A DNA stretch of 21,267 bases from NCBI GenBank assembly GCA_965649055.1, contig CBFGJG010000037.1, positions 1 to 21,267 of the forward strand, written 5' to 3'. Every line of letters begins with the position of its first letter. Position 1 is the stretch's first letter. The position numbers and the translations under genes were made by a program. The DNA is from a candidate division WOR-3 bacterium. GTDB lineage: Bacteria > Hydrothermota > UBA3072 > B12-G15. Positions 19,752-21,267 of the stretch are shown here, in pieces. The notes below the pieces were generated by a model. It had not been told where the DNA came from, searched no databases, and worked only from the letters and a program-made list of their open reading frames with translations.

Positions 19752-20000
19752 GATAAATATTTTGAAAGTTAAAAAATTTCAGTTTTCAATTAATCGCATC
19801 ATTCTTTATATTTAATAAGGTATTAACGGATTTTAACCTGTGCATTTTTTTATTTCAAGTTTGGCGGTTTTCTTCACTTCTTTATCCTAATCTCTAAGAA
19901 TCGTTCCCTTCCTTTTTTATCATTCTGAAGGCTTTCAGGCTTCCTACTCTTCTTTTCAAGCCTGTGGGAATTTTAATTTTTTTTCTTTATTCTTTTATTC

Positions 20001-20036
20001 GTCATTGCGAGACTACGAAGTAGTCGTATCAATCCC
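20001..20036. repeat. REP-like palindromic element (GTCATTGCGAG...CAATC type)
   Basis: GTCATTGCGA GACTAC-GAA-GTAGTC GTATCAATCCC: perfect 6-bp stem with GAA loop and outer ATTG/CAAT arms; single copy in window. Confidence 0.5.
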
Positions 20037-20082
20037 ATCCTTTCTACAGGAAAAGTTGAAAATTTATGACTGACCCCAAAAA

Positions 20083-20293
20083 AAAACACTTGACAAATTT
20101 CAATTTTTATGTTAATATTACTAAAACACTTGATTTTTCTTTGTTCTTTGACAATTTTAATAGAATAGCAGGAAGACTTTTATTGAAAATGAATAACTTA
20201 AAAATTTGAAGTTTTGAAGACCTGTAAAAAAGGGGGAGACCTGCGGAAATGCCCTTATAACTTTATGATAATAAGAAGGTTAGACCCCCTGCT
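20083..20293 (+). promoter_or_regulatory. CRISPR leader with promoter and boxA-like element
   Basis: TTGACA (20090-20095), 17 bp, TGn-TAATAT (20113-20118); TGTTCTTTGACAA (20142-20154); AT-rich, directly precedes repeat 1. Confidence 0.7.
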
Positions 20294-21267
20294 GTCTGAA
20301 ACAATGACCCGCTTTTAAGGGGATTGCGACTTTCCTTTCCCGAGCATCGCTGATAAATTCACTAATTTTCATGTCTGAAACAATGACCCGCTTTTAAGGG
20401 GATTGCGACTCCGTGGTCTAAAAACTCGCTAATTTTCATAAGTTCCTCGTCTGAAACAATGACCCGCTTTTAAGGGGATTGCGACTATATCACTATTGAC
20501 CACTATAACGAAGTTGGAATAATGTCTGAAACAATGACCCGCTTTTAAGGGGATTGCGACATCGTCACTATTGCTTATATCGTACTCCAAAATTTCGTCA
20601 AGTCTGAAACAATGACCCGCTTTTAAGGGGATTGCGACTTGATGGAGGTGTTCTATACTCAATTCCACCATGGAATTGTCTGAAACAATGACCCGCTTTT
20701 AAGGGGATTGCGACATTTAATGCCTTAAATAATTCCTTGATGCTTTTAAAAGAGTCTGAAACAATGACCCGCTTTTAAGGGGATTGCGACCTTACAGTGT
20801 GCCCCTTACTAAGGAGCTTCGTCACAACATTCTCAAGTCTGAAACAATGACCCGCTTTTAAGGGGATTGCGACATTATCAGATGAATTGATCAAGTCTTT
20901 ACAACACCTGTCTGAAACAATGACCCGCTTTTAAGGGGATTGCGACCTTACGCGAAGCATCGCTAATAAATTCACTTAACTTCATAGTCTGAAACAATGA
21001 CCCGCTTTTAAGGGGATTGCGACAGGCCGCGTGTCCACTCGCCTGCTATGCTATAGCCGAGTCTGAAACAATGACCCGCTTTTAAGGGGATTGCGACAGT
21101 CTGGAACTTGTTCACCATTAAGTATTCTTCTTATTATGTCTGAAACAATGACCCGCTTTTAAGGGGATTGCGACTAGTCTTCAGCATCTCAATTTCTTTT
21201 CTTAAATCATGTCTGAAACAATGACCCGCTTTTAAGGGGATTGCGACGGATACCCTTCGGCAATCTC
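20294..21267 (+). CRISPR. CRISPR array, type III-like; 13 identical 37-nt repeats, 12 complete spacers (36-46 nt) plus 1 partial, runs off the window end
   Basis: Repeat GTCTGAAACAATGACCCGCTTTTAAGGGGATTGCGAC starts at 20294, 20373, 20449, 20524, 20602, 20678, 20754, 20837, 20910, 20987, 21061, 21138, 21211; CCC/GGG hairpin followed by an 8-nt ATTGCGAC handle as expected for Cas6 processing. Confidence 0.99.

Follow-up and report, generated by a model that had tools for sequence, protein, structure and literature searches.

Clustered gene-start spacers in two CRISPR array families of an uncultured hot-spring bacterium

The clustering of CRISPR spacers at the start of one protein-coding sequence in this candidate division WOR-3 genome is real, and it is stronger than first reported: four spacers carry the pattern, and they are distributed over two array families. 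On the internal evidence of the spacers, the four represent separate uptake from the translation-start region of one gene family. We think it probable that three spacers of the array described below (spacers 1, 2 and 9), together with a fourth on contig C4, reflect a transcription-linked uptake bias of a type III Cas1-Cas2 lacking a reverse transcriptase (RT), with selection acting afterwards. We infer a foreign source for the targeted gene, a strong or early promoter nearby, and a bias of uptake beyond the effect of selection alone. The case adds a new natural example from a distant lineage to a phenomenon described experimentally since 2021 and 2026; it is not a new kind of system.

The window, by which we mean the whole stretch of DNA that was analysed (21,267 nt), is the entire contig C37 of a 2.08-Mb assembly with 31.6% G+C and 85 contigs that is 93.8% complete. 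DNA of the window is contained in sequencing runs labelled hot springs metagenome. The end of the window is occupied by a CRISPR array (Table 1) with the regular identical repeats and unique spacers of type III length that are a feature of type III-A arrays; its complete spacers measure 36-46 nt (n = 12). The last full repeat ends at 21247 and is followed by a 20-nt piece of a 13th spacer, which is cut by the contig end. A promoter-like site conforming to the sigma-70-type consensus lies 175 nt 5' of the first repeat. No cas genes were found in the C37 window.

Table 1. Positions of the array, its leader and the spacers discussed in the text. Positions refer to the window unless another contig is named.
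Feature	Position	Strand	Description
Leader promoter-like site	20090..20118	+	TTGACA, 17 nt, TAATAT; TG precedes the -10 hexamer; 10/12 consensus matches
AT-rich leader	20119..20293	+	From the promoter to the first repeat; no ORF of at least 80 aa
CRISPR array	20294..21267	+	37-nt repeat in 13 identical copies, ending ATTGCGAC; 12 spacers complete and a further one cut; reaches the contig end
Spacer 1 (newest, 42 nt)	20331..20372	+	Reverse complement begins exactly at ATG: MKISEFISDARERK
Spacer 2 (39 nt)	20410..20448	+	Reverse complement: GAGG, 5 nt, ATG, reading MKISEFLDHG; passes the strict SD+ATG test
Spacer 9 (40 nt)	20947..20986	+	Reverse complement: T, then ATG, reading MKLSEFISDASRK
Spacer 10	21024..21060	+	G+C-rich (about 62%); differs at 4 positions from a C78 spacer (about 309-349) of a repeat-2 array
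C4 spacer	C4:20096-20136		Reverse complement: AAGGAGG, 6 nt, ATG, reading MKLSDFIDA; from a listing of all arrays in the genome

The surroundings of the leader hold other repeated sequences. A ~45-nt motif ending in the -35 box TTGACA has only two copies genome-wide, one at 20056-20100, 5' of the C37 leader, and the other at about 185-230 of contig C5, directly after the last repeat of the array piece with which that contig starts. From this arrangement, C37 and C5 would seem to be opposite ends of a single array located within a duplicated promoter region. Just 5' of the leader, a hairpin-forming element at ~19996-20040 resembles a two-copy repeat on contig C11 (9607-9694) and has the look of a palindromic element of the REP type. 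Contigs from four hot-spring runs (X1-X4) carried near-identical repeats with other spacers flanking them, and run X1 contributed one 30-nt loose end that is antisense to an SD and ATG. When the four runs were compared with the window at 20331-20448, the repeat was covered and spacers 1 and 2 were uncovered, even in the run that held 56% of the window's sampled words.

The positions and translations given for spacers 1, 2 and 9 in a preliminary description of this DNA were confirmed on the reverse complements, and its identity counts were reproduced when we recounted them: spacers 1 and 9 share 26 of their first 30 nt and differ at positions 6, 7, 9 and 21, and spacers 1 and 2 share 16 of 18 nt and differ at positions 12 and 15. 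The statement that three of 12 spacers share this target is correct for the C37 array and an understatement for the genome, since a fourth is present in a second array with a different repeat, a mini-array on C4 consisting of two repeats and one spacer, whose 36-nt repeat, the second of the genome (repeat 2), is distinct from the C37 repeat. We then compared all 29 spacers and spacer pieces of the genome pairwise in both orientations. Across these 812 comparisons the median score was 5 and the 99th percentile 9; the pairs 1/9 and 1/2 scored 18 and 12, respectively, so that their similarity is far beyond chance. The C4 spacer and spacer 9 scored only 9 when aligned ungapped. Allowing for a one-codon gap, 21 of 27 nt match, and all mismatches (6/6) occupy third codon positions.

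The spacers start 0, 1, 9 and 14 nt 5' of the ATG, and the sequences diverge after codon 6-10. Together the four span -14 to +42 relative to the ATG, a region of 56 nt as deduced from the spacers themselves. Two of the four spacers, spacer 2 and the C4 spacer, extend far enough upstream to show an SD, and in both it lies 5-6 nt from the ATG. These two also have GAGGAAC in common, and the stretch that follows it differs between them by one base in length. We take the ATG to be the true start, because an SD stands 5-6 nt upstream and because a one-base length difference after GAGGAAC fits non-coding sequence. The SD found 5' of the ATG in spacer 2 and the C4 spacer supports the earlier assignment of the spacers to a translation-initiation region.

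In codons 2-7 of the four sequences, variation affects every third position (6/6), two of the six first positions (Ile/Leu) and none of the six second positions (0/6). On sequence grounds, this codon-position pattern is that of protein-coding sequence under purifying selection, with an old divergence between the sources. Differing spacer boundaries and variation at third codon positions likewise agree with the earlier proposal that the spacers were acquired independently from diverged coding alleles. Were they instead products of repeat-spacer unit duplication and drift, or an artefact of assembly, one would have to explain why boundaries and lengths differ, why the 3' parts are unrelated after codon 6-10, why the differences follow codon positions, and why one copy sits on another contig (C4), in an array built on a different repeat. 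Zhang et al. 2021 (PMC8860593) report duplicated repeat-spacer units for type III arrays, but in the present case the sequence contradicts such an origin, and we give it practically no chance.

A different account of the alleles is that they are paralogous copies within one invader, either a multi-copy gene family or a repeated 5' cassette, by which the same site would be offered repeatedly. It would accommodate the two newest spacers (1 and 2), which represent two different alleles of one site, and the 5' UTR motif GAGGAAC common to spacer 2 and the C4 spacer. Set against these points, third codon positions are nearly saturated, indicating old divergence, and the distribution of the spacers over two arrays, with positions 1, 2 and 9 in that of C37, suggests events that were separate in time. 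We consider paralogous copies in a single invader to be quite unlikely.

Two further contigs carry the C37 repeat, C5 at its start and C63 at its end. On C63, three repeat copies lie next to the gene series cas6-cas10/csm1-csm2-csm3-csm4-csm5-CARF-cas1-cas2 (csm1, 589.7 bits); a degenerate last repeat is followed by cas6, and the cas genes run in the same direction. Judged by its gene content, C63 is a type III-A (Csm) locus that uses the C37 repeat, located on a separate contig, with contigs breaking inside arrays. The 3' end of the repeat, ATTGCGAC, equals what we take to be the 8-nt tag of Thermus thermophilus, whose type III repeats presumably end like the C37 repeat. Four features lead us to assign + as the crRNA strand of the C37 array: the promoter, the degeneracy of the last repeat, the orientation of the cas genes and this repeat 3' end. 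A literature search for ATTGCGAC as an 8-nt tag returned no relevant paper, and the sequence has 0 occurrences in the part of PMC7515739 that was available. Rfam CRISPR-DR matches on the C37 array were sub-threshold and fell on both strands. The crRNA is antisense to the reading frame in 4/4 spacers (1, 2, 9 and C4), an orientation that suits these crRNAs to RNA-guided type III interference.

Other CRISPR-Cas loci in the genome comprise a second Cas10 (Cmr2, 277 bits) locus on C68, a second Cas1 on C25, which is 35% identical to the first and adjoins a ring nuclease and a repeat-2 array, and a type I-B-like locus with a third repeat on C23. The two Cas1 proteins (333 and 317 aa) are stand-alone, as is Cas2. 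There were 0 RVT_1 matches in the genome (93.8% complete), and no RT was fused to or beside Cas1 at the cas loci; the lack of an RVT_1 domain indicates that the spacers were probably taken from DNA. The RT-Cas1 systems of Marinomonas mediterranea and Vibrio vulnificus reportedly take their spacers from RNA. Those systems resemble the present one in their type III context and transcript-linked spacers, whereas here the RT domain is missing and Cas1 stands alone. As a side observation, C25 and L172 (C4) encode a geranylgeranylglyceryl phosphate synthase and a digeranylgeranyl reductase-like protein beside alaS, together with a type IX secretion sortase that is PorU-like. With regard to lineage, lipid genes of archaeal type may be of interest when they occur in a bacterium.

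The genome-wide test for gene starts covered 21 complete type III spacers. A strict SD+ATG in target sense was observed in 2, against about 0.4 expected from a background of 2.1%. An ATG followed by an open frame occurred in 5/21 (background 14.6%, P = 0.18), in a small sample and with the published peak lying downstream of the ATG; with the homologous family collapsed, the count fell to 2/18 (P = 0.76), again in a small sample. A general gene-start excess among the 21 type III spacers was not significant once the family was counted once, and spacers lying wholly within +10 to +50 are unrecognisable without a protospacer. For the family itself, if uptake from a 20-kb element were uniform, the chance of 3/20 other spacers starting within one particular 30-nt window of one strand would be about 5e-7; the cluster therefore calls for some bias or for strong selection.

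We propose the following course of events. The end of the window would be the leader-proximal part of a type III-A (Csm) array that is transcribed on the + strand. The RT-less Cas1-Cas2 would prefer DNA just past active or early promoters, near start codons. Spacers 1, 2 and 9 and the C4 spacer would have been taken independently from diverged alleles of one foreign protein-coding gene, each extending from the ribosome-binding site, or from the start codon, as far as about codon 10-14. Their crRNAs would be complementary to the target mRNA, such that type III interference would be triggered upon transcription, and selection would then keep only spacers with crRNA antisense to an early or abundant transcript. 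Four antisense spacers at -14 to +42 in an RT-less type III setting are consistent with both components, uptake bias fitting their position and selection their orientation.

A bias of this kind has been described experimentally in Streptococcus thermophilus. There, in the accessible part of Zhang et al. 2021 (PMC8860593), type III-A spacer uptake favours DNA lying just downstream of promoters, and across the genome it peaks 10-50 nt past start codons. In the available portion of Noble-Molnar et al. 2026 (PMC13575424), uptake during phage infection peaks just past a conserved early promoter; the hotspot needs transcription, forms without csm1-6 and is independent of interference, and a moved gene gains the same 10-50 bp peak. 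The same portion reports that natural type III-A spacers show the same enrichment together with an antisense bias. An acquisition hotspot at mRNA 5' ends, which had been put forward earlier as one of several alternatives, agrees with the published type III-A data as given in these parts of the two papers (PMC8860593, PMC13575424). By the same extracts, the S. thermophilus system is like ours in having an RT-less type III Cas1-Cas2 and a pile-up from the start codon to about +50 (PMC8860593, PMC13575424), and also in having spacers antisense to mRNA and several independent spacers per short site in related invaders. The differences are that S. thermophilus is a Firmicute, whereas the present host, at 31.6% G+C, is an uncultured bacterium of hot springs, and that here, unlike in S. 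thermophilus, two array families with a Cas1 pair 35% identical record the same site, which is known from the spacers alone. That the precedent for uptake bias comes from Streptococcus, far from this hot-spring lineage, counts against our reading, as does the negative outcome of the protospacer searches described below.

Selection might also have produced the cluster alone. Uptake would then be unbiased, and only crRNAs against one early or essential transcript would protect across repeated related infections, the conserved 5' end being where diverged invaders are still alike. The interference-competent orientation of 4/4 spacers is in keeping with such selection. However, selection acting on a whole transcript leaves four starts within 14 nt unexplained, as opposed to starts spread along the gene. 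Type III interference tolerates mismatches, so near-duplicate spacers would add little protection, which is a further point against selection alone. The nearest published parallel for selection is Thermus thermophilus, in which, according to Artamonova et al. 2020 (PMC7515739), type III spacers owe their bias in position and strand to selection for early-gene targets and not to uptake, only early-transcript spacers having protected. As described there (PMC7515739), T. thermophilus is alike in being a thermophile with type III arrays whose surviving spacers are transcript-complementary and lie in a narrow region. Its hot region, which that part of the paper puts down to selection, nevertheless extends over several kilobases (a long terminal repeat with early genes), compared with 56 nt here (PMC7515739). 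We judge selection without uptake bias to be an unlikely explanation.

It could also be argued that uptake was interference-driven ('primed-like'): an older spacer, e.g., spacer 9, would recognise a mismatched relative of its original target, and the resulting target damage would feed new spacers. Spacer 9, which is older, shares its site with spacers 1 and 2, which are newer, as would be expected of such a process. To our knowledge, no interference-driven uptake mechanism has been described for type III systems. In S. thermophilus, moreover, the hotspot forms in the absence of csm1-6 and independently of interference, as stated in the available portion of PMC13575424. Uptake of this type strikes us as highly improbable.

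We searched several collections for the protospacer, and none of them yielded one. Self-targeting was rejected, as the host genome contains neither an MK[IL]SEF gene nor a near match to the gene-start spacers. Of five DNA patterns scanned against viral contigs, four gave 0 matches, and the fifth gave 18 stretches, all in unrelated proteins. The pattern scan of genome contigs returned 102 stretches whose N-termini were mixed and unrelated, and among 100 relatives the host genome alone matched. With blastn against GenBank phages and PLSDB plasmids, queries of spacer 1 alone and of the whole array gave only 22-24-nt chance matches (E about 8) and otherwise nothing. In 272 genomes of the phylum, the best blastn matches of the spacers were at chance level with 0 at an ORF start, and a 21-nt pattern yielded 5 foreign matches versus 6 for the reversed control, none of them relevant. 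The pattern scan of metagenome contigs gave 4 matches, consisting of 3 short ORFs and one PrmC.

This PrmC, a 276-aa protein with a very similar beginning, MKLSEFLADAASRLEK, raised the question of whether the targeted stretch opens a prmC/hemK-like (release-factor methyltransferase) gene, from related bacteria or on a mobile element. Peptide comparisons lend the idea some substance: among 10,812 ATG starts, the host PrmC N-terminus ranked 1 (tied) against spacer 1, 3 against spacer 2, 36 against spacer 9 and 93 against the C4 spacer, and when a profile of PrmC N-termini from 28 relatives was used, the four peptides ranked 1, 7, 28 and 78 of 10,806 in comparison with host N-termini. Yet PrmC was represented by only 1 of the 102 stretches from the genome contigs, the 272 genomes of the phylum held no DNA-level match to prmC or another gene, and no PrmC relative was found in viral contigs. 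The prmC start in relatives, furthermore, abuts or overlaps an upstream ORF (prfA in the host genome) and not a promoter. The spacer-1 peptide also ranked 21 of 12,449 on an XRE/Cro-type first-helix profile; because it ranks high on the PrmC and XRE/Cro profiles alike, short helical N-termini appear to be easily mismatched. The hypothesis was, in addition, formed after the matches had been seen. A prmC-like target seems to us improbable, and we treat PrmC and XRE/Cro as leads only to the identity of the targeted gene.

The gene start is not the only site that appears in both array families. Spacer 10 and its C78 partner formed the top pair of the 812 comparisons, with a score of 26. Their target is G+C-rich relative to the genome at 31.6% G+C and contains a short palindrome; Rfam returned nothing above threshold for spacer 10 or the C78 partner. 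In the invader, this target may be a site of structured RNA or DNA. Structured or palindromic DNA forms another class of type III-A hotspot in the accessible part of PMC8860593, and by analogy a link between spacer 10 and this class is suggested. Taken together, the spacer 10/C78 pair and the gene-start family indicate that both array families have recorded at least two common sites. A separate observation on C78 concerns the first spacer of the repeat-2 array (80-118), which carries AAGGAGG, a short gap and an ATG in crRNA-sense orientation. Such a gene-start spacer would not pair with the mRNA, which fits uptake in both orientations.

We tentatively raise the possibility, itself rather unlikely, that two type III adaptation modules with Cas1 proteins 35% identical and different repeats recorded the same two invader sites, the gene start and the spacer 10 target, and that sampling of promoter-proximal or structured DNA is ancient and general to type III. 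If this is true, arrays would be readable as a guide to which genes are transcribed earliest in never-sequenced viruses. If the start-of-gene uptake reading is true, the bias seen in the laboratory with S. thermophilus also shapes natural arrays in an unrelated thermophile, in two families at once, which would support the view that start-of-gene bias belongs to type III immunity in general. In practical use, homologous spacer clusters may point to the first-expressed gene of unsequenced viruses or plasmids.
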